A stretch of 64,000 bases of DNA, from contig JBPRGF010000033.1 in the NCBI GenBank assembly GCA_051418015.1, positions 160,001-224,000 on the forward strand. Reading direction: 5' to 3'. The notes beneath the pieces are model-generated. The model had not been told where the DNA came from. It made no database searches and was given only the letters and a program-made list of their open reading frames with translations. This document shows, piece after piece, positions 46,975 to 62,125 of this stretch. Each line of letters starts with the position of its first letter. Within the stretch, counting starts at the first letter, position 1. The stretch comes from Candidatus Nitrospinota bacterium M3_3B_026 (lineage in GTDB: Bacteria; Nitrospinota_A; UBA7883; JBPRGF01). Position numbers and translations under genes: made by a program.

Positions 46975-49275
46975 ATGACCGAGCCCAGACACGACGATGA
47001 CAAGGCTGCTGGAGAGGCCGGAGAGGAGAGCCTCTCGAGGTCGGACATCGAAAAGTTCAAGGAGCTTCTGGACGAAGCGGCCAAGGAGCGCAAAAGCATT
47101 CAGCTTCTCGTCGAGTACCTGTCCAGGAACGAGGAGTCGATCGAGAACAAGGTCTCCCTTTTCAGGAAGATAGAGGACAAGCTCCAGAGCCTGGAGGCCC
47201 TGTCGGCGGATATCGAAAAGAAGCTCAGGGGGTTCGGAACCGTCGAAGAAGAGTTGACCCGGACAGGCTCCCGGATCGACGAGCTGATGGGCGTCCTGGA
47301 CAAAGGCCGGAAGGACATGGAGTCGGTCAATCTCCTCGTGGAGCACATAAACTCCAAGATAAAAAGCCTCTCCCTGCAGCGCGTGGTGGTGGAGCGCGCC
47401 AACGAGGAGGCCGGCAAGCTCAACGTGCTTTTCTGGGACATGGAGTCCAGAGTCAAGAGGCTGCAGGAAGAAAACAGGCTCGTAAAGAAATCCGAAAAGA
47501 ACATCATCCGGCTGGAGAACATGCTGGAGACGATATCCAGCCGGATGGAGAAGGTGGACCAGTTCAGGAGCCTGATGACCGAGGCCGACGAGCGCGTCTC
47601 CCAGATGAAGAGGGTTCTCGGCGACGTGGAGGCGAGGATGGCCTCGCTGGAGTCCCAGCGGCGGACGGTGGAGAACCTGGCCTCCGAGGCCCGGCGCGGC
47701 CGGGAGACAGTGGAGCGGATGCAGGAGTCCATCGAGGACGTGGTCAAGCAGCGCGTCGTCGTGAACGAGATCCAGGGCGAGGTGTCGGACCTGTTGAGCG
47801 GCATGAACGAGCTGCGCGTGGAGACACGGAACGCCCTCTCCAAGAGCGGCCAGGTCAGGAAAGTGGCCGACAGGCTCTCGGAGCTGGATCAGACCGCGGC
47901 GGACGTGGAGACCAGGCTGGCCCGCCTGCGCGAGGAGGGCGCCAGGGCGGAGGAGATAGAACGCAGGATAAGCGATCTCAACGCGTTCCTGGAGGAGAAG
48001 GTGGAGTCGAGGATACAGACCGCCTCCGGACAGCTGAAAGCCGTCCAGATGGCCCAGGAGAGCCTGGAGCGGTTCTATTCCTCGGCCGAGGAGATGGAAA
48101 AGAGGATCCGCGCCTTCCACGAGGACCTGAAGATCGCCGACGAGGTGGAGGCCAGCCTGGGGAGGATACGCGAGGCGGGCGAGGCCGCCTCGGCGAAGAT
48201 GGAGGAGTTGGGCCAGCGCCAGGCCATGGTGGAGCAGGTGGAGAAGAAGATAAACGACATCAACGACATGGTGCTCAACCTCGATGTCAAGATGGAGGCG
48301 CAGCTGGAGCGCCGCGGTCTCGTGGAGAAGCTCGAGAAAAAGCTCGACGGGATAGACTACCTCGTGGAGGACGCCAACCTGAAGATCGGCAAGCTCTCGA
48401 AGAAGATGGAGCTGATGGAGACGCTGGAGAAAAAGATCGAAGGGTTCCAGGGCGTCACGGAGGCCATGGAGGAACGGATACTGGACCTGGCGAAGGAGAA
48501 GGCCGCCCTGGACGCCACCGAGGAGAGGATGAAGGCGATGACCGAAAAGATGGCCGGGATGGAGGAGGATATCACGAGCCGTCTGCGAGACGTGGAGCGG
48601 AGCCACCAGCGGCTGGGGGAGATAAAGGACCTCCAGGGCAAGATGGAAAGCTCCATGGAAGCGATGAGCCAGAGGCTGGAAAAGGCCAGCGAAATCGTGG
48701 AAGCCAGCGAGAAGATGGAGTCGAAGCTCAACGCGATGGCCGCGCGCGCGGAGGACATGGAAAGCAGGATAGAAGGCGTGCGCGAGCAGGACGAGAGGGT
48801 CGTGGAGACGGAGAAGAAGCTCACGCAGCTGCAATCCATGTACGACGCCATTGACGAGCGCATATCGGCCGCCCGCGAGGAGGAGGAGATGATAAGAGCC
48901 TCCGCCGAAGAGGTGGAGGGACTGCGGGGAGCCCTGGAGGACATCCACGCCCAGCGGGAGCTTCTGGAGAAGGAGAAGGAAAGCTTCAAGGGCATCACCG
49001 ACAAGATAATAGACATAAACGAGACCATGGCCGACAAGGAGGCCAAGATCGACAGGCTCACGTCGAAACTGGCCATCGTCTCCAAGGTGGAGCGCAGGCT
49101 GGACGACCTGAACCTGATGGCCGAGGACGTCAAGGCGAAAGTGGCCGCCCTTGTAGAGGAGGAGCGCACGGTGGAGAAGGCCGGCGAGCAGATCGTGGAG
49201 CTGAAATTCCTGCTCGGCGAGATAGAAAAGAAGCTCAACGAGTACTTCAACCTCAAAAGCGGCGAGGGGGCGTAG
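46975..49275 (+). CDS. Long all-coiled-coil protein built from ~31-aa repeats, function unknown
   Basis: 766 aa, E/K/R/L/M-rich, almost no Pro, with no ATPase, signal or TM motif. AGGAGG RBS and TATAAT at 46910. Confidence 0.85.
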   Translation: MTEPRHDDDKAAGEAGEESLSRSDIEKFKELLDEAAKERKSIQLLVEYLSRNEESIENKVSLFRKIEDKLQSLEALSADIEKKLRGFGTVEEELTRTGSRIDELMGVLDKGRKDMESVNLLVEHINSKIKSLSLQRVVVERANEEAGKLNVLFWDMESRVKRLQEENRLVKKSEKNIIRLENMLETISSRMEKVDQFRSLMTEADERVSQMKRVLGDVEARMASLESQRRTVENLASEARRGRETVERMQESIEDVVKQRVVVNEIQGEVSDLLSGMNELRVETRNALSKSGQVRKVADRLSELDQTAADVETRLARLREEGARAEEIERRISDLNAFLEEKVESRIQTASGQLKAVQMAQESLERFYSSAEEMEKRIRAFHEDLKIADEVEASLGRIREAGEAASAKMEELGQRQAMVEQVEKKINDINDMVLNLDVKMEAQLERRGLVEKLEKKLDGIDYLVEDANLKIGKLSKKMELMETLEKKIEGFQGVTEAMEERILDLAKEKAALDATEERMKAMTEKMAGMEEDITSRLRDVERSHQRLGEIKDLQGKMESSMEAMSQRLEKASEIVEASEKMESKLNAMAARAEDMESRIEGVREQDERVVETEKKLTQLQSMYDAIDERISAAREEEEMIRASAEEVEGLRGALEDIHAQRELLEKEKESFKGITDKIIDINETMADKEAKIDRLTSKLAIVSKVERRLDDLNLMAEDVKAKVAALVEEERTVEKAGEQIVELKFLLGEIEKKLNEYFNLKSGEGA

Positions 49276-53967: not shown

Positions 53968-56900
53968 TCAGTTTAGCCTGAGGTTCCTGGCGGACTTGTC
54001 CATCTCCTCCTCGAAGCGTTGGCGGGAAAGGCCGATGTCCCTTAAAACCTCCTCGCGCAGCCTGTCGAGCAGGGAGCGCTTCTCCTTGTCGAAGGATGTG
54101 TCCAGGTCGGCCTTCTTTTTCATTATGTCGGCGATAAGCTCCTGCCGGCGTTTGTACTCTTCGGTTTTAAGCTCCATGTCAAGCATTTCCAGCTTTTTGC
54201 TCTTTTCCAGGGCGAGTTCCCTTTCGAGGCGCTCGATCCTCGCCTCCTTCTCCTTCTCGATCTCCCTGTCCGCCTTCGCCAGAAGCTCGGCGCGTTCCTT
54301 CTCCAGGCCGGAGAATATCTCCTCGCGCATTCGCGCCGCCTCGGAGTCCAGGCCGGATTTTATCCGTTCCAGCGTCTCGGCCCTTCTGGCCTCCTCCTCG
54401 GCGCGCAGGCTCCGTTCCATCCTGCCTCTTTCCAGCGCGGCCTCCTTCTCCAGCCGCTCCCGCTCCCTTTGCGCGTGTTTGGAGAGGCTCTGCTCGTAGC
54501 GCCTTCTCCTGCTCTCCCGTTCCGCCTCGAGCTCCTCGGCCATCTTCTCCTTCAGCTCAAGCCGCAGCCTGTCCGCCTCGTACCGGATCCATTCCTCCTG
54601 GCCGCGCCACAGCCTGTGGCGGCGCTCCATGAGGGCCTCCTCCATCCCCCGCTCGGCCAGCTTTTTCTCCCTTTCGAGGGCGGCGAAGATCCTGGACCTC
54701 TCCCCGGCCAGATCCACGCTCATCTCCCTGCGCAGCTCGATCCGCTCCGCCTCAAGCTCCCGCTCGGCGGCCTTGAGCCTCCTGGCCTTCTCCTGCGCGA
54801 CGTCCTCCAAAAGCTCGCGCAGCCTCGTCTCGCGCTCGGCGATGATCTCTTCGCGGAGGGTGGCCTCGGCGGCCTTGCGCTCCGCCCTGATCTTCTCCCT
54901 CGTCTCGTTGAGAAGCTCCGCCTTTTTCTTCACAAGCTCATCCCTGGCCGTGGTGATGACGGATCGCTTGTGGTCTTCCACCGCCTCGCGGATACGCGCC
55001 GTCATGAATTTTTCCCGGGAGCGCAGTCTTCCCTCCATGAGGGAGACCCTCGCGGCATACTCCTCCTCCAGCCCGGCCTCGATAACCGCGGCGCGGCGTT
55101 TCTTTTCCTCCCGCTCCCACTGGGCGAGCCTTTCGGTATGCCGGCGGCGAAGTTGGTCCACCTCTCTTTTCAGCTTTTCGATCTGAACCGTCCTGCGCTC
55201 GTCCAGCTCGTTTTTCAGCTCCATCTCCATCCGGACGGCGCGGGGGCGGGCCTGGGCCTCGAAGTCGGCCATTATCTCCCTGCGTTCGGCTTCCAGCCGC
55301 GCGGTCATGCGCTCCCGGGCGGCCTCCTCCTCCCTGGCGATCGTTTCCGCCAGCCTGTCATGTCTTTCGATCTCTTTGTCCTTCAGGCTTTTCTCGAGAT
55401 CCTTAAGCCTTCTTTCCCTTTCTTTCTCCACCTCCCTTCCCATGGCGTCCATGGCGGCGATTCTGCGTTTGGCGAGTTCGTCCTCGATGGCCCGCGCCTG
55501 GCCTCCCATGATATCGGCCATCTCCTGGGAAAGCCCCTCCATCAGCTTCTGACGCCTGTCGTCTATCTGTTTTTCAAGCTCATTCATGCGCCGTTCGCGC
55601 TCGGCCGCAAGGGCCTCCTCCAGGGCGCGTTCCTTCCCGGCCTTCAGGGAGGCGAGAAGGCTCTCAAGCTCCTCGCGCCGCTCGCGCCCGGCCGTCTTCA
55701 GCCGCTCGTTCATCTCCGCGTGGAGCCGGGCGGAGAGCTTTTCGGCGTCTTTCTTCACGGCGTTCAGGCTGGATGTCTTGAAGTCGAGCATTTCCTTTTC
55801 AAGCTCGAACAGCCGCGCCTCGCGCTCTATCTCCACCCGCTCGTTCGTCTCTCGCTCGAGTTTTTCCAGAGTTTCCTCGATCCTTTCGCGCTTTCGTTCC
55901 GTCTCCTTTCTCAGGGCGCGGGTAAGCTCTTCCTTTCTTTCCTTTGCCAGGGAGGCGATATCCCGCTCCAGGGTCCTGAGCCTCTCCGCGCGTTCGGCGG
56001 CGATGTCCCCGGCGATCTTTTCCGTCTCTCTCTGGCGGAAGGAGGCCAGGTCGTTGTTGAGCTTGTTGAGCAGCCGCTCCCGCTCCACCTCGCTCTTGCG
56101 GCGCAGAAGCTCGATGGTCTCCTGCTCGCGGCGGGCGCTCTCCTCGTCGAAGAACGAGGAGAGGCGCATGACCTCCCGGTAGGCGTCCTCCAGCAGGTTT
56201 TTCCTGATCTGGCCCGCTTCGTTTTCCGCCTCCTCTCGCAGGGTCGTCTTGAAGTTTTCTATGTCGCTTAAGGCTATGTCCCGCTCGTTCTCGCGCAGCC
56301 TTTCGGTCTCCTCCCTGATGGAGGCGATCTTCTTGTCCCTGCTCTCCTCCAGCTCCCGCCACACCATCTCGCGGACGCTCTCCACCTCCTTGCGCACCTT
56401 GGCGTGGACCTCCTTGCGGAGGCGCTCCTCCGTGTCGGCGATCTGTTTTTCCAGCCGCTCCTTTTTCTCGGCCTCCAGCTGGACGATTTTCTCCAGGCTC
56501 TCACGGCGCAGCCTGGACATCTCCTCCTCGAGGTCCGCGAGGGCGTCCGCCTTCGCTTTTTCCATCTGCCCGGCCAGGTCGGCGAGCCTCGCCTCGCGGA
56601 GGGCCGTGATGTCCTCCTCGATCTTTTCCTCGCGCCGTTTCTCCGCCTCCCGGGCGGACTCCTCCACGCTCTCCAGGCGCTGGTCGTATAGCTCGGAAAT
56701 CTCCTTTTCCATGTGTTCGACGGCGGCGCTCCTGCGCGCGTCGAGCTCCCCGGCCAGCTCGGCGCTTTTCATGTCGAACTCTCTTTTGACGGCCTCTTCC
56801 ATCGAGGCCATCCTTTCCCCCAGGCTCTTTTCCATCTCCTCGTCGACGGCCCTCCTGCCCCTTTCCAGGTGTTCGGCCAACTCCCGCTCCATGGCGGCCA

Positions 56901-57993
56901 TCCTCGCCTCGCGCTCATTTTCGACGTATGCCTCCACGCGGTTGAGTTGGCGGCTCTTTTCGTCCTCCAGCCTTTTCCGCGCGTCCAGGAGAGCCTGCTC
57001 GTCGAGTTCGATATCCAAGCCGGGCGCGACGCTCCTCGCCAGCGCCTTGAACGCCTCCGTGACGGGGAACCCCGGCTCCAGGTACGGCGCCGGTTCGCGT
57101 TCGAGCCAGGCGTTTTTCAACACGGGGTCCCGCGGGATGATCCCCGCGCAGTTCATCTCTATCCCCACGCGCTGACGGACGCGCTCCGGCAGGTCGTGGC
57201 CGAACCCCAGGCTGGCGCTGTCCTTCGCCCTGTTGACGGCGAAAAGGAAGACGGCCTCGTTCCTTATTTTCCGTATCTTCCTTCTGCGCCGCCGGTCCCC
57301 GTCCAGCGACTCCTCGATCTCCTCGGCGAGCGGTTTTTCGCCGCCGGCCATGGGCAGGGCTTTCCTGATGGCGGGAGGGGGCTTTTTGAACGCAAGCTCC
57401 ACGGAACGGGCCAGGGCTTTCTCCATCAGCGCCTCCGCCATCTCCGCGGAGCCGCTTGCAGCCTCGAGCACGAGCAGCGGCGCGTCCGCCGACAGCAGAA
57501 GGTCGAGCCTTGCGTTGTCCGTGATGAGCCCCAGGTCGGCCACCACGAAGTCGACGTCCAGGGCGGCCAGCTTTTTGAGAAGGCTCTTTTTGGGCCTTGC
57601 CGTCTTTTCCGGCAGCAGGGGGTGGTCCTCGCCGCCGTCGATCATGAACAGGTTCTTGTACCGCGTCGGCGCGACGGCCTCCTGTATGCGTCGCGCCCGC
57701 CCGGACAGAAAGTCCTGCATCGTGACGGCGGGCTTTTCCATGCCCATCAGGTAACGCATGGGCCGCGAGCCGAAGGAAAGATCGGCCACGACAACCCTTT
57801 TTCCAGAAAGCGCGAGCGTGGCCGCGAGGCCGAGGGCCGTAACGGACTTGCCGGAGCCGCCGGCCACTCCCGTGACGCCCACGGTGACGGCTTTTTTCCG
57901 TGTCTTCTGGAAGGGGGGGTGTGACAAGCGGTTGTCGGCGTTTGAATCTTTTTTCAGCGGATCGGACGGGGAGCCGGACGGGCCTTGAGCCAT
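53968..57993 (-). CDS. MinD/FlhG-like P-loop domain fused to a ~1000-aa coiled coil
   Basis: [21 protein letters not shown] and GIIPRDP in the N-terminal ~330 aa, then E/R/K/L/A-rich repeats. Start placed at ATG 57993; the ORF is open to 58170. Confidence 0.8.
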
Positions 57994-58136
57994 TTTGAGG
58001 ACCACCTTCTGAAAAATCCCACCAGTAAGAAGAAATTCTAATCGGCTTCGGGCCGCGCTGTCAATGATTTCAAGGCCGTTCAGAGGCGCTTGCCATGGTA
58101 GAATTATATAAAAAAGATTTTGGGCGTCGTTCGCGC

Positions 58137-59183
58137 ATGAGCCACGGAGATTCTGAAGGGGGGCGCGCAAGGGCCTTGGCGCGCGACCCCGGCGTTCTCA
58201 TCGAAACGCTGCGGCGTATCCATTGTCTGCGAAAGCTTTCGCCTCCGCAGCTCGCCCGCATCGCCAGGCTCAAGACCCGCCACTGGGGCCCGGACGAGTT
58301 CATCTTCAACGAAGGCGATCGCGACCTGGACAGGATGGTGGTCCTGCTCGCGGGAAAGGTCTTTGTGCGCAAGCGGGTGCTGAAAGGGGAGGGCGAGACC
58401 TTCGAGCAGGTGGCGGAGCTCTCCGGCCCGAACATCGTGGGGGACGACTCCTTTTTCACGGGCTTCAGGCGCTCCGCCAGCGTCTACGCGCGCGAAAGGG
58501 TCGCAGGGATACAGATCGAACGGGAGGACTTCAACGGCCTGGTAAGCCTGGATCGGGCGCGTGGGGTGGAGTTCCTGAAAAAACTCGTGGAGGAGGGCGT
58601 CCAGAGGGCGGAGCGGACGCTGGCCCGTTACATCAGCACCCTGCAGATAGTCATGGGCGGCGTATCGCTGAGCGACTGCGCCTTCTACGGGACGCTGGAG
58701 TCCTTCAAACGCCGCCTGCTCAAGACCCCGCCGGGGATGGACGAGTGGAGGGACAACGTCCGCCGGATCATGCTGATGATAAGGGAGGCCAACCAGGCCC
58801 TGGAGGAGCTTTACCATTTCGCCCACAGCCCGGAGCTTATGCTGGTCTCCGTGGATCTGAAAAAGTTCCGCCTCTCCAAAAGCCATACCTTCTACCCGCT
58901 TTTCAAGTCGATCACCGAGGAGCTGGCACAGACGCAGATGCTGGTCTCGCTGGATACCATAAACCTGAAGGACGTGGTCATCTCCAACGTGATGGCCGGC
59001 AGGGAGCCCGGCGATTCAGGGGTCGACTACTTCACGGCCGTGACCCTGGCCACCGGCGTGTACAGGGAGTTCGCCGCCCGCCTGCCGGAGATGGGGTTTG
59101 CCGCCAGGATGGCCGCGCCCGCGCCGCCCGCCCGCCGGGAAAGCAAAAGGGACAACAGTCTCCTGTGGGAGGATGCGCCCTGA
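58137..59183 (+). CDS. Cyclic-nucleotide-binding domain protein with an unrecognised helical C-terminus
   Basis: IFNEGD...MVVLLAGKVFV...IVGDDSFFTGFRRSASVYA is the cNMP fold pattern; no Crp HTH recognised. Confidence 0.75.
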   Translation: MSHGDSEGGRARALARDPGVLIETLRRIHCLRKLSPPQLARIARLKTRHWGPDEFIFNEGDRDLDRMVVLLAGKVFVRKRVLKGEGETFEQVAELSGPNIVGDDSFFTGFRRSASVYARERVAGIQIEREDFNGLVSLDRARGVEFLKKLVEEGVQRAERTLARYISTLQIVMGGVSLSDCAFYGTLESFKRRLLKTPPGMDEWRDNVRRIMLMIREANQALEELYHFAHSPELMLVSVDLKKFRLSKSHTFYPLFKSITEELAQTQMLVSLDTINLKDVVISNVMAGREPGDSGVDYFTAVTLATGVYREFAARLPEMGFAARMAAPAPPARRESKRDNSLLWEDAP

Positions 59184-59223: not shown

Positions 59224-59322
59224 TGTCATTCTAAGCCCCTTCGGCTTGCGCTCAGGCAGGCTCCGGCGAAGAATCTCGTCGTTTTATACGGTACGAGATG
59301 CTTCGCGTCGCTCAGCATGACA
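59224..59322 (+). repeat. TGTC-tagged palindromic repeat, family 1, copy 3
   Basis: TGTCATTCTAAGCC...GGCGAAGAATCTCG...CGAGATGCTTCGC..GCTCAGCATGACA, between convergent genes. Confidence 0.8.
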
Positions 59323-59360
59323 TTGCGGAGATCGGCGCGAGACTTTTTTCCGGCAATCCC

Positions 59361-62125
59361 TCAGGGCTCGTTTTTCTTCCTGCTCCCGGCGAGCGCCTCC
59401 CGGGCGGCCCTTGCCAGCGTTCCGGCGGTGTAAGGCTTCATCAGCAGCTTGCATATTCCGGCCGCGTGCGCCTTCTCCGGTGTTATCCTGCGGCTGAAAC
59501 CGGTGGTGAGGATTACCGGGATGCTTGGCTTTATTTGTATTATCTCACTTGCCAGCTTGTCGCCGGTCATCCCGGGCATGGTCTGGTCCGTTATCACAAG
59601 GTCAAAGCTTTCCGGATTCTCCCTGAAAGTTTCCAGGGCCACGGCGGGGCTGGTCATCGGCGTGACCTCGTACCCGTTCGCCTCCAGTATCTTCCTGTTC
59701 ATCCTGGCGATGGACTCCTCGTCGTCCACGAGCAGAATCCGCCCCGCTCCGCCGGGGTCCGAGTCCTCTCTCTCTTCCTCGTCTTCCAGGCGCGCCTGCC
59801 CCTCGCCGCCCGCCGGGATGTAGACCTCGAACGTGGAGCCCTCTCCCTTCGCGCTGCGGACGGTTATCGCGCCGCCGTGCTCCCGGACTATCCCGTGGAC
59901 CGTGGAAAGCCCCATGCCCGTGCCCTCCCCCAGCGGCTTGGTGGTGAAGAAGGGATCGAATATCCGCTCCAGGGTCTCTTCGTCCATGCCGACGCCGGTG
60001 TCGGTGACCGTCAGCTTGACGTACTCCCCGGCCCGGGTGTCCAGAGAGCGGGCCTCCTCCGCGTCAATGCTCACGGTGTCGAGGGTCACTTCCATCACGC
60101 CGCCGGCCTCGCCCATCGCATGGTATGCGTTCACGCAAAGGTTCATCACCACCTGGCTCAGCTGTGTCGGGTCGGCGAGAACCTGCGCCGTCCCGGAGAG
60201 GGCGCTGACCCTGACTTCGACGGTGGACGGGATCGAGGCACGCAGCATCTTCAGCGTCTCCTTCACGATCACCGCGGGGTCCAGAGGGCTTTTGCGAGTC
60301 TCCGCCTGGCGGGAAAAGGAGAGCATCGCCGCCACCAGCTCCTTCGCCCTTTTCCCCGCGGTCAGAACCTCCCCCAGGTCGGAGTGTGTCTCGGTCCCTT
60401 TCGGCGTGTTTTCCATGACAAGCTGCGTGTAGCCGATGACGGCGGTGAGGATATTGTTGAAGTCATGGGCGATCCCTCCCGCCAGCATCCCCATGGCCTC
60501 CAGCTTCTGCTTGCGCCGCGAGTGGCGCTCCAGCATCGCCTCGCGGGTGATGTCCTTCTTTATGGCGATGAAGCCCGTCACGGCGCCGGAGGAGTCCTGG
60601 ATCGGCGTTATGGACGCCTCGATGTCGAGAAGACCGCCGCTTTTCGTCCTGGTGACGTACTGGCCTTTCCACGACTTTCCGCTCTTCACCGTCCGCGCGA
60701 GGTATTCGTAGAAAGCCTTGTCATGGTCGCCGCTTATAAGGATATGGAAGTCGCTCCCCACGGCTTCGTGGCGCGAGTAGCCCGTCATCTTCTCGAAAGC
60801 GGCGTTCACATACTGGATCACGCCCTCGCCGTCGACGATCATGACCATGTCGTTGATCCTCTCGATCGCCGCGCCAAGACGCGCGGTCTCTTCCCGGGAG
60901 CGCTGGATGTCCACGACGCGGCCAAGCTGTTTCGCTATCGTGTCCGCCGCCGTCATCAGAAGCTCGTCCTTTTCCCTGATCCGCGTGCTGAAAAACTCCA
61001 GCACGGCGTAAACGCCCCCGGCGGTTATCACCGGGAAGGCGAAGCCGGTCCTCACCCCGATGTCGTGGTAGGCGTTGGCGCGGGGATAGTTTTTTCTGTC
61101 CTTCGTTATGTCCGTGACCCATTCCGCCTTGCCGGACTCGTACACGCGGCCGGGCAGTCCTTCACCCGGTTCAAACTTCATGTTTTCGGTCACGCTTCTG
61201 AAAATCCTGAAAAGGGAAGGGCTCCTCAGAAAGCTCCAGATGCCCGTGGAGCGGAGGTATTCTATCCCCCCCCCCCCCCCACGGGGGGCTCGGCGACGTG
61301 GATGTGGCCCACGTCAAAGCCTGTATGCTCGCATATCCTATCGATGGCCGCCCGCAACGCCGTCTCCGGGGAGGAGGCCTCGGAGGCGGCGAGCGCCACC
61401 TCCTGGGTCATTACCATCAGCTCTTCCCTTCTCTGTATCTCCCTGGCCATCGGAAGAAAAATGAAGCTCGCTATGAAAACCATCGCCGCCATCGTCAGCG
61501 CCAGGGAGATGAGTATGATGTATATGGGGACGCTCTTTCTCAGCTCGGCTTCCCGCTGGTACTGGCCGACGAGGGCGTCCAGGTCGCGCATCAGGCTGTC
61601 GCGCTCTCTTTCCATCAGGCGCATGGCCGGGTTGGCGTGGGTCAGCTCTTCCACGGGGGCCTTGGAGAACCTGCGCGCCGCTTCCGTGTATTCCGCGACC
61701 CGCTCCATCAGCCGCATCGGCTTTTCGAGAAGCATCCTCCGGACGGTCTCCGACGGATCCCCGGGCAAGTTCAGCTCCTCCGAGCCGGAGAAGAGCTTGC
61801 TCATGGAGTATTCCATGAGGTCCGCCGTTTCGATGAGCTTTTCTCTCAGGTTCGGCATCCCGCCCCTGTGTTCCTCTATCCCGGCCGCTTCGTGGATGAG
61901 GTCGTGGGCCAGCAGCCCGATACGAGTGCACAGCATCCGCTGGCGGCCGCTTATGTTCATCACCGCGGCGTTCACGTTGACGATGCCCACCACGTAAAGA
62001 ACCGAGGCGAACTCCGCCACGACGAGGACGGCTATTATGGACAGGGCGAGGATGTGACGGCTGGTTACAAAATGCCGTATACGGCCTTCAGGCGCTGCGG
62101 CGCCATGCTCTCCGCCGCGAGTCAT
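59361..62125 (-). pseudogene. Hybrid histidine kinase (TM-NarX/PilJ-type sensor-TM-GAF-PAS-HisKA-HATPase-REC), frameshifted at a G15 tract
   Basis: The 5' ORF (62125-61262) has NISGRQRML and starts a GAF domain. The 3' frame resumes right after the G run (IEYLRSTGIW...PGEGLPGRV) and contains AHDFNN, NLCVNA, DTGVGM, GTGMGL, LVDDE and TDQTMP. This may be phase variation or an assembly artefact. Confidence 0.85.
61266..61280. repeat. Homopolymer C15 (G15 on the coding strand)
   Basis: Read directly from the sequence. Confidence 0.95.

Follow-up and report, generated by a model that had tools for sequence, protein, structure and literature searches.

A MinD-like head without two signature residues joined to a predicted pentadecad rod of near-constant length in Candidatus Nitrospinota bacterium M3_3B_026: a putative cellular spacer

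What use might a bacterium make of a MinD-like P-loop domain that lacks two signature residues of its kind and runs directly into some 1,000 residues of predicted helix? The question is raised by a gene in a stretch of 64,000 nucleotides (hereafter the window) from Candidatus Nitrospinota bacterium M3_3B_026, corresponding to positions 160001-224000 of contig 33 (JBPRGF010000033.1) in an assembly of 2.85 Mb and 33 contigs (GCA_051418015.1). A preliminary description, made from the letters of the window, had read the product of this gene as a pseudo-ATPase heading a giant rod of 15-residue repeats (pentadecads). The protein was used to search 60 related genomes: 17 of the same order, 14 of a family of the same class (f8), one other of the phylum and 28 from outside the phylum. 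The explanation that we favour, and to which we give an even chance, is that the head binds nucleotide without cycling and that the rod, as a right-handed coiled coil of parallel strands, serves as a spacer 120-150 nm long.

Several comparisons show that the N-terminal head has the predicted fold of MinD and FlhG, SIMIBI-type members of the MinD/ParA group. The generic CbiA/ParA P-loop family matches it at 30.7 bits (cut-off 25.4) and is the sole Pfam family above cut-off anywhere in the protein; the NCBIfam MinD models match weakly, well under their own cut-offs (41.7 bits versus 201.75). A phmmer comparison with the PDB sequences retrieved archaeal and bacterial MinD, FlhG and FleN, the best match being an archaeal MinD (1g3q, E 2.4e-11). 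For residues 29-328, an AlphaFold2 (AF2) model made from an alignment of 20 sequences has a predicted local distance difference test score (pLDDT) of 87.5 and a predicted template-modelling score (pTM) of 0.89. Its top Foldseek match is FlhG 4rz3 (E 2.4e-13, template-modelling score 0.81 on the target), followed by FleN (5j1j, 8p53), MinD (1g3q, 3q9l) and Soj. The head carries an extra helical insert at about residues 195-245, which it has in common only with a sister group of standalone MinD-like proteins (see below), and it joins the rod without a break at about residue 335-345.

The head differs from its models at two positions of known importance. When the head is aligned by HMMER with MinD chains of archaea and E. 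coli, Ala44 falls on the signature lysine of the KGGxGK[ST] motif and Lys49 on the P-loop lysine, within a normal P-loop GK[ST] (G48-K49-S50). In the same alignments, Asp71 corresponds to the first aspartate of switch I and Ser73 to the second, so that the segment had been correctly read as DLS in the preliminary description, as had the alanine in its Walker A motif. Both losses extend to the whole family. The signature Lys is missing from all 21 orthologue heads that could be read, its position being occupied by Ala, Ser, Thr, Cys or Gly; the second switch-I Asp is likewise missing from 21 of 21. In canonical proteins both residues drive ATP-dependent sandwich dimerisation and hydrolysis, and we infer that the head no longer cycles. 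The nucleotide pocket is otherwise well kept. G46, G48, D153, G155 and N254, all of them pocket positions, are invariant in a 19-sequence alignment, and the P-loop Lys is present in 18 of the 21 heads (it is lost in L009, L017 and L024). The invariant pocket residues, together with the P-loop Lys of these 18 heads, suggest that nucleotide binding has probably been kept in most members. As a statement about activity, the term pseudo-ATPase is a prediction, to be set beside the invariant pocket and the nucleotide binding that most members have probably kept.

The second part of the protein, 996 residues or about 66 pentadecads, follows a single rhythm. The spectrum of its hydrophobic residues (LIVMFYW, residues 346-1341) has one peak, at 3.745 residues, with a power of 92, compared with a maximum of 11.2 in 200 shuffles; the power is 0.0 at 3.5 and 0.3 at 3.667. 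In windows of 60 residues, the phase at 3.75 stays within 17-127 degrees, that is within about one residue, from residue 331 to the C-terminus, and with the rod set out 15 residues to a row, the hydrophobic ones line up at positions 1, 5, 8 and 12. The peak, at 3.745-3.75, recurs in 20 of 20 proteins (19 full-length homologues and the window protein; power 36-90), and the family-averaged spectrum peaks at 3.745 with a power of 127 and harmonics at 3.0 and 5.0. In the family register over residues 796-1290, positions 11 and 15 are hydrophobic at 88% and 81%, and position 7/8 is a mixture of Leu and Arg. A scan of the 3,765 open frames of at least 250 residues in the genome singled out the rod gene as the sole outlier near 3.75, with a power of 48.9; it was followed by the shadow frame on its antisense strand (15.6) and by one frame without relation to it (14.2).

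The composition of the rod (22% Glu, 16% Arg, 11% Ala, 11% Leu and 8% Lys, with 24% LIVMFYW in all) includes a single Pro among the 996 residues, and the AF2 monomer model of the last 150 residues is one continuous helix (pLDDT 91). Neither the rod halves nor the C-terminal 150 residues matched a Pfam family at E < 0.01. Recent expansion of a repeat was considered as a source of the 15/4 period and rejected: Tandem Repeats Finder returned three trivial rows of 15-22 bases and nothing else, and residue identity is 0.13-0.17 at lags of 15n versus 0.112 at other lags. The absence of tandem repeats in the DNA and the low identity at these lags therefore indicate that the rhythm is structural. Together, these data show the tail to be, by prediction, an almost unbroken helix-former with a 15/4 hydrophobic seam. 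According to passages of two published accounts, 15/4 periodicity leads to right-handed supercoiling (PMC8016460, PMC9858780).

A single frame of 1,265-1,382 residues holds both head and rod in 20 further genomes, all from the order and class of the window, and 19 full-length homologues, from independent assemblies, could be read. Two of the 20 fused homologues hold one stop codon each, TAG in G008 (C102:8586-12317) and TAA in G018 (C16:32297-36172); each could be a pseudogene, a sequencing error or a split gene. The rod was matched in 15 of the 17 same-order genomes and in 11 of the 14 f8 genomes, two of the latter as contig-end fragments. The one remaining genome of the phylum gave no match to the rod, and in the 28 genomes from outside the phylum the P-loop head was matched and nothing else of the protein. 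Judged by these matches, this is a real, lineage-restricted gene family, whose members come from relatives labelled Nitrospinota. Direct homologue searches with the head, the whole protein and the last 150 residues gave 0, 0 and 1 match (P0005), counts in which crowding by charged repeats is likely and which are not evidence of rarity.

Beyond its period, the rod conserves its length. Spacings were measured between motifs, without alignment. The distance from the island around Trp545 to the second island, RDVM..S..FD, is 61 residues in 19 of 19 homologues. From there to the KTEE motif it is 669 residues in 16 of 19 (13 scored by script, with L001, L003 and L004 placed by hand) and 658, 658 and 641 in the other three, and from the KTEE motif to the C-terminus it is 66-68 residues in all that were scored. 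In agreement with this, 15 of 18 homologues have no gap of at least 3 relative to the window protein between residue ~500 and the end, at 20-36% identity; the exceptions are deletions of 11 residues in L019, 11 in L021 and 11 plus 17 in L017. Most of the variation in length lies between the head and about residue 500, where the gaps are mostly 4, 7, 11 or 15 long. The length of the rod from Trp545 to the C-terminus is thus shown, as far as the aligned and measured homologues go, to be nearly invariant. The C-terminal module is itself conserved, with E1278, R1283, Q1284, K1293, E1304, E1330 and N1341 invariant in the 19-sequence alignment. The preliminary description holds in what it observed, and its interpretation is supported in part; the roles that it suggested for the rod, as polar landmark, molecular ruler or cytoskeletal element, are conjectural. 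The parsing of the tail into 15-mers is borne out by the 3.745 peak, the rows of 15 and the constant phase, and the occasional 11-mers that it reported agree with the gap lengths of the family. A plain heptad period, which it had named as a possible refutation, is found in none of the 20 proteins. The giant rod gains in substance from its near-invariant length.

We propose that the head binds nucleotide but does not go through the ATP-driven dimer/monomer cycle of MinD and ParA; it would be either permanently 'on' or a purely structural docking module. The tail would form a parallel, in-register, right-handed coiled coil, which would be a stiff rod. With a rise of 0.148 nm per residue, 996 residues would span about 147 nm, of which about 118 nm would be the invariant part. 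The conserved C-terminal module could serve as a second docking site. A non-cycling head, a fixed-length rod and a C-terminal docking site would together make the protein a fixed-length spacer or scaffold, in which the partner of the C-terminal module is held at a set distance from the partner of the head, or from another copy of the protein.

Several observations weigh against this proposal. The oligomerisation, handedness and rod shape in it are putative. In the C-terminal half of the rod the fourth core position is polar (position 3 is Glu at 49%, position 4 Arg or Lys at 60%), and the seam there is thin, with about 3 of 15 positions, in a tail that is 46% Glu, Arg and Lys; both features lean somewhat to the character of a single alpha-helix. 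The invariant pocket residues could signal a working nucleotide switch, as in McdA. The rod gene was not found in two of the 17 same-order genomes, G004 (83% complete) and G010 (1.7 Mb), or in three of the 14 same-class genomes, G021, G022 and G029 (1.8-2.2 Mb); since it was not found in five relatives of the order and class, the gene would not be essential. Rod proteins without a head are encoded in G001 (L025 8143-10824, 893 residues) and G011 (L029 1824-4583, 919 residues). The G001 protein begins 96 residues ahead of the conserved Trp and retains the whole stretch from there to its C-terminus, and a methylenetetrahydrofolate reductase gene lies 214 bases upstream of its gene. Both genomes belong to family f2, of which a third genome, G007, has the full fusion. 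The existence of these forms means that the head is dispensable for at least part of the function. Finally, 60 neighbouring proteins at 12 homologous loci included no consistently adjacent gene or operon partner.

A bolder form of the spacer proposal, which we hold only tentatively and regard as somewhat doubtful, is that the family represents a new class of cell-architecture protein, a molecular ruler built on what would be the longest right-handed (15/4) coiled coil known from nature. The last 797 residues of the rod would be kept at an exact count across two classes of one phylum, and the MinD-derived head that caps it would be frozen by the loss of its catalytic Lys and Asp. In these slender bacteria, the ruler would hold two cellular sites, such as envelope and nucleoid or a pole and a cargo, at a fixed separation of about 120-150 nm. 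A neighbouring 766-residue protein, predicted to be a left-handed coiled coil, may act together with the rod.

An unlikely alternative is that the protein forms filaments or a lattice, an intermediate-filament-like network comparable to those reported for Scy, FilP and crescentin, which would shape or stiffen a slender or helical cell and to which the head would be a regulatory or anchoring addition. This overlaps with the spacer proposal and differs from it in the higher-order assembly and in the role. A non-heptad rod of this size has a precedent in Scy of Streptomyces, described in part of one report as having more than 1,000 residues, nearly all in hendecads (PMC9858780). Scy and FilP are, like the present protein, bacterial, cytoplasmic, non-heptad rods; they differ in that their hendecads (11/3) are nearly straight and follow a DivIVA-like N-terminus, whereas the rod protein has 15/4 periodicity and a MinD-like N-terminus. 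Pfam scans gave no sequence relation of the rod protein to Scy, FilP or crescentin. Scy interacts with ParA, and by analogy the rod protein would combine both partners in one fusion. The tail-only forms and the second conserved coiled-coil gene, which encodes the 766-residue protein and lies within 5 kb in six genomes of five families, would also suit a filament. Against it, the protein has no DivIVA-like or other known filament head motif, and its tail matches no Pfam family at E < 0.01. We know of no exact length conservation in such filament formers, which also counts against this alternative.

That the head is still a working switch, which dimerises on ATP and hydrolyses it with the help of substitute residues, seems to us quite unlikely. 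The protein would then be a self-contained, ParA-like positioning machine, with the coiled coil as an arm for cargo or an adaptor. The precedent is McdA, a ParA-like protein which, according to passages of PMC6582323, forms an ATP sandwich dimer without the Walker A signature Lys (Ser or Thr stands there) and replaces this lysine with Lys151 from another helix. The invariance of the P-loop glycines, the Walker B Asp and N254, and the P-loop Lys of 18 of the 21 heads, also speak for a working switch, and a conserved basic stretch before Walker B, K(R/K)xxxxKN, could provide the lysine. In favour of the non-cycling head of the spacer proposal, mutation of the Asp that corresponds to the second one of switch I was used in McdA to stop hydrolysis while the ATP dimer was kept (PMC6582323), and in our alignment the MinD-ATP dimer chain 3q9l has Ala at that position. 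McdA itself retains its catalytic Asp (PMC6582323, in part), and it is a small cycling ATPase that works with a separate partner, McdB, and positions carboxysomes. In the rod family the signature Lys and the second Asp are both missing from all 21 heads, the three lineages without the P-loop Lys still keep the whole protein and its period, and two lineages have lost the whole head.

A hairpin of the SMC/Rad50 type, in which an intramolecular antiparallel coiled coil would dock the C-terminal module on the N-terminal head, is very unlikely. It has in its favour that a P-loop head and a conserved C-terminal module lie ~900 helical residues apart, recalling the logic of SMC proteins, and that the two ends are the best-conserved parts of the protein. 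Walker A and Walker B are both in the N-terminal head, though, so that the nucleotide site needs no C-terminal half, and no conserved break is found in the middle of the rod. Two candidate hinges were considered and rejected: Gly-Gly 830-831 is not conserved in the family alignment, and Pro917 is kept within the order only, not across both classes. The 11-residue deletions of L019 and L021 are not matched by deletions in the opposite arm, and a parallel rod therefore fits better than a strictly paired hairpin. The head-less forms, in addition, retain the full fixed-length part, and none of the SMC or Rad50 models in an NCBIfam scan matched the rod protein.

Highly improbable, in our opinion, is that the tail is no coiled coil at all. 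It would then be either an ER/K-type single alpha-helix or an amphipathic helix that rests, as 11-mer repeat proteins do, on the surface of a membrane or droplet. The Glu, Arg and Lys fractions given above and the one polar position among the four of the core are compatible with such a helix. The 24% LIVMFYW, however, form one coherent seam over about 1,000 residues, and two positions per repeat are 81-88% hydrophobic throughout the family; ER/K helices have few hydrophobic residues and are not known to show such a seam. The period also speaks against this alternative, because the 11/3 of surface-binding repeats comes closer to the relaxed helix than 3.75 does.

An artefact, either an assembly chimera (which the preliminary description had raised against itself) or a non-coding open frame in GC-rich DNA, can draw on the many long shadow frames that overlap the locus in this high-GC sequence, and is practically without weight, being already refuted by conservation: 20 other genomes have orthologues of the same length, whose conserved motifs keep a fixed spacing, and the head is modelled with high confidence. 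One contig of sequencing run X1 also spans the stretch without a difference, but may be the source of the DNA. Runs X2 and X3 yielded short pieces only, none of which bridges the head-rod junction by at least 31 letters, and were not used as support.

How does such a protein compare with known systems? With MinD, FlhG (YlxH) and FleN it has in common the predicted head fold, the P-loop GKS, the first switch-I Asp and the Walker B Asp; it differs from them by the absence of the signature Lys and the second switch-I Asp in every member, and by a 996-residue rod where their C-terminal amphipathic helix would be. On the side of the rod, 15/4 periodicity or right-handed stalks are described, in the parts of two reports that bear on them, for the trimeric autotransporters YadA and SadA and for tetrabrachion (PMC8016460, PMC9858780). 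In YadA and SadA, as those parts describe them, the pentadecads are segments that shift to other periods within extracellular trimers, and tetrabrachion is a tetramer based on 11 residues. The rod protein would have about 66 consecutive 15/4 repeats in a cytoplasmic protein. To our knowledge, no natural 15/4 run of comparable length has been described. The logic of the protein resembles that of AglZ and FrzS of Myxococcus, in which an N-terminal domain of a signalling fold without the canonical chemistry is followed by a very long coiled coil; these have a receiver-domain head and a heptad-type coil, and no sequence kinship to the rod protein. Full-text literature searches, whose scope did not extend to subscription journals and supplements, found no description of this fusion or of any 15/4 coil of comparable length.

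If the spacer proposal is right, coiled-coil biology would gain a natural, soluble, very long and regular 15/4 rod, and the register data of the family would offer a model for how such bundles are built, how they tolerate polar core layers and how length is counted. In bacterial cell biology, the accepted view of ParA/MinD proteins is that of switches driven by ATP; one that has been disabled, fused to a rod of fixed length and, in some species, discarded would be a different use of the fold. Nitrospinota matter for marine nitrite oxidation. The rod family would point to an unstudied structural system in this phylum, as judged by the labels of the relatives.

The origin of the head can be traced in part. 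A head profile was searched against 1.84 billion representatives, and the best 150 matches were examined for motifs. It retrieved 10 orthologue representatives, six of 1,158-1,342 residues and four shorter ones (320-732 residues) that are probably fragments. Below these lies a plateau of several hundred standalone MinD-like proteins, mostly of 300-450 residues, which match the head from end to end. The signature Lys is kept in 138 of the best 150 matches; the 12 without it are the 10 orthologues, P0076 (Gln) and P0150 (Glu). Its presence in nearly all the closest standalone matches argues that the loss is derived and specific to the rod-protein family. This sister group, which no NCBIfam model names, matches the whole head profile at E 1e-41 to 1e-52 and has the insert in common with it, but differs in an intact KGGxGK[ST] and DxDxGxxNLH and in having no rod (about 300-450 residues). 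Two metagenomic proteins, P0015 (600 residues) and P0016 (551 residues), keep the signature Lys, already have Ser for the second Asp and carry a Glu/Arg/Lys-rich tail of 220-270 residues with a period of 3.735-3.745; judging from these features, they may be evolutionary intermediates. A search of a protein atlas gave just MinD/ParA clusters of a generic kind, whose values of 0.86-0.88 all fell short of the 0.9 set for a lead. The genome of the window also encodes a 323-residue MinD-like paralogue with an intact signature Lys and 30% identity. Its gene overlaps a DnaJ + HTH_25 (RodZ-like) gene at the start of the latter; the two (L002 1456-3071) lie about 86 kb upstream of the rod gene, outside the window, and the pair recurs in G001 (L025 4103-6000).

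Table 1. Positions in the window of the rod gene and of the features assigned to its product
Feature	Residues	Window coordinates	Strand	Basis and remarks
Whole gene	1,341 aa + stop codon	53968..57993	(-)	Open frame, translation
Predicted MinD/FlhG-fold head	35-335	56989..57891	(-)	Pfam CbiA, phmmer, AF2, Foldseek
Walker A, GVAGGSGKS	42-50	57844..57870	(-)	Signature Lys replaced by Ala44, P-loop Lys49 kept; alignment to MinD chains
Switch I (Walker A'), ADLSFG	70-75	57769..57786	(-)	D71 kept, second Asp replaced by Ser73; alignment to E. coli MinD 3q9l
Walker B, FVVADLG	149-155	57529..57549	(-)	D153 and G155 invariant in 19-sequence alignment
Predicted pentadecad (15/4) helical rod	346-1341	53971..56958	(-)	Spectrum, phase, rows of 15
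Island around invariant Trp545, consensus EVEKIREMxWQxLEE		56326..56385	(-)	W545 and E549 invariant; fixed-length part starts here
Second island, consensus RDVMxxSxxFDxE	605-618	56140..56181	(-)	M609 and D616 invariant
C-terminal module, EIKTEEYxRRQELIxEIMxKK ... WRLN-type end	1255-1341	53971..54231	(-)	Conserved

The frame of the gene (Table 1) is open upstream of its ATG as far as position 58170, where there is a TTG, and 4 codons before the ATG stands a GTG. Given these alternative starts and the lack of conservation of the first ~30 residues among relatives, the exact start is uncertain by a few codons, which affects none of the other results. One orthologue fragment is annotated at NCBI as 'hypothetical protein [Nitrospinota bacterium]'.

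In the window, a superoxide dismutase gene begins 36 bases downstream of the rod gene; such a gene was found beside none of the homologues at the 12 loci scanned. Divergent, on the upstream side, lies a gene (58095-59183, (+)) for a 362-residue protein with a binding domain for cyclic nucleotide monophosphates (cNMP). The preliminary description had proposed to look for co-occurrence of the rod with a cNMP protein and a 31-repeat protein. The cNMP-binding protein does not keep company with the rod in general: it was found in 9 of 35 genomes, its gene adjoins the rod gene in three only (the window, G002 and G006), and it was found in none of the 14 f8 genomes, 11 of which have the rod gene or fragments of it. 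Upstream of the homologue in G014, and divergent from it, lies a gene (L027 12592-14652) whose HEAT-repeat product weakly matches adenylate/guanylate cyclase. It gives another hint, not a general one, of a cyclic-nucleotide theme beside the rod gene.

The co-occurrence with the second coiled-coil protein is real within the order, and loose. Its gene (46975-49275, (+)) encodes the 766 residues mentioned above. Their hydrophobic spectrum has just one period, 3.46 (power 76), and no other frame of the genome gives a stronger signal in the 3.44-3.56 band; they match the NCBIfam model SpiroCoCo_C at 148.8 (cut-off 125). The protein was found, at a nearly constant length, in 27 of the 35 genomes, and the close linkage to the rod gene counted above is that of the window, G003, G006, G007, G008 and G009. 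Genus g12 has the rod gene and gave no match to the 766-residue query; G022 has the 766-residue protein although the rod gene was not found there. A YjeF-type NAD(P)HX repair gene follows the 766-residue gene in the window, G006 and G007. Beyond the cNMP-binding gene, a frame of 899 residues (59298-61997, (+)) has no family match and overlaps a GAF-PAS-HisKA-HATPase-receiver hybrid kinase on the other strand (59361-61193, (-)); it is probably a shadow frame of GC-rich DNA.

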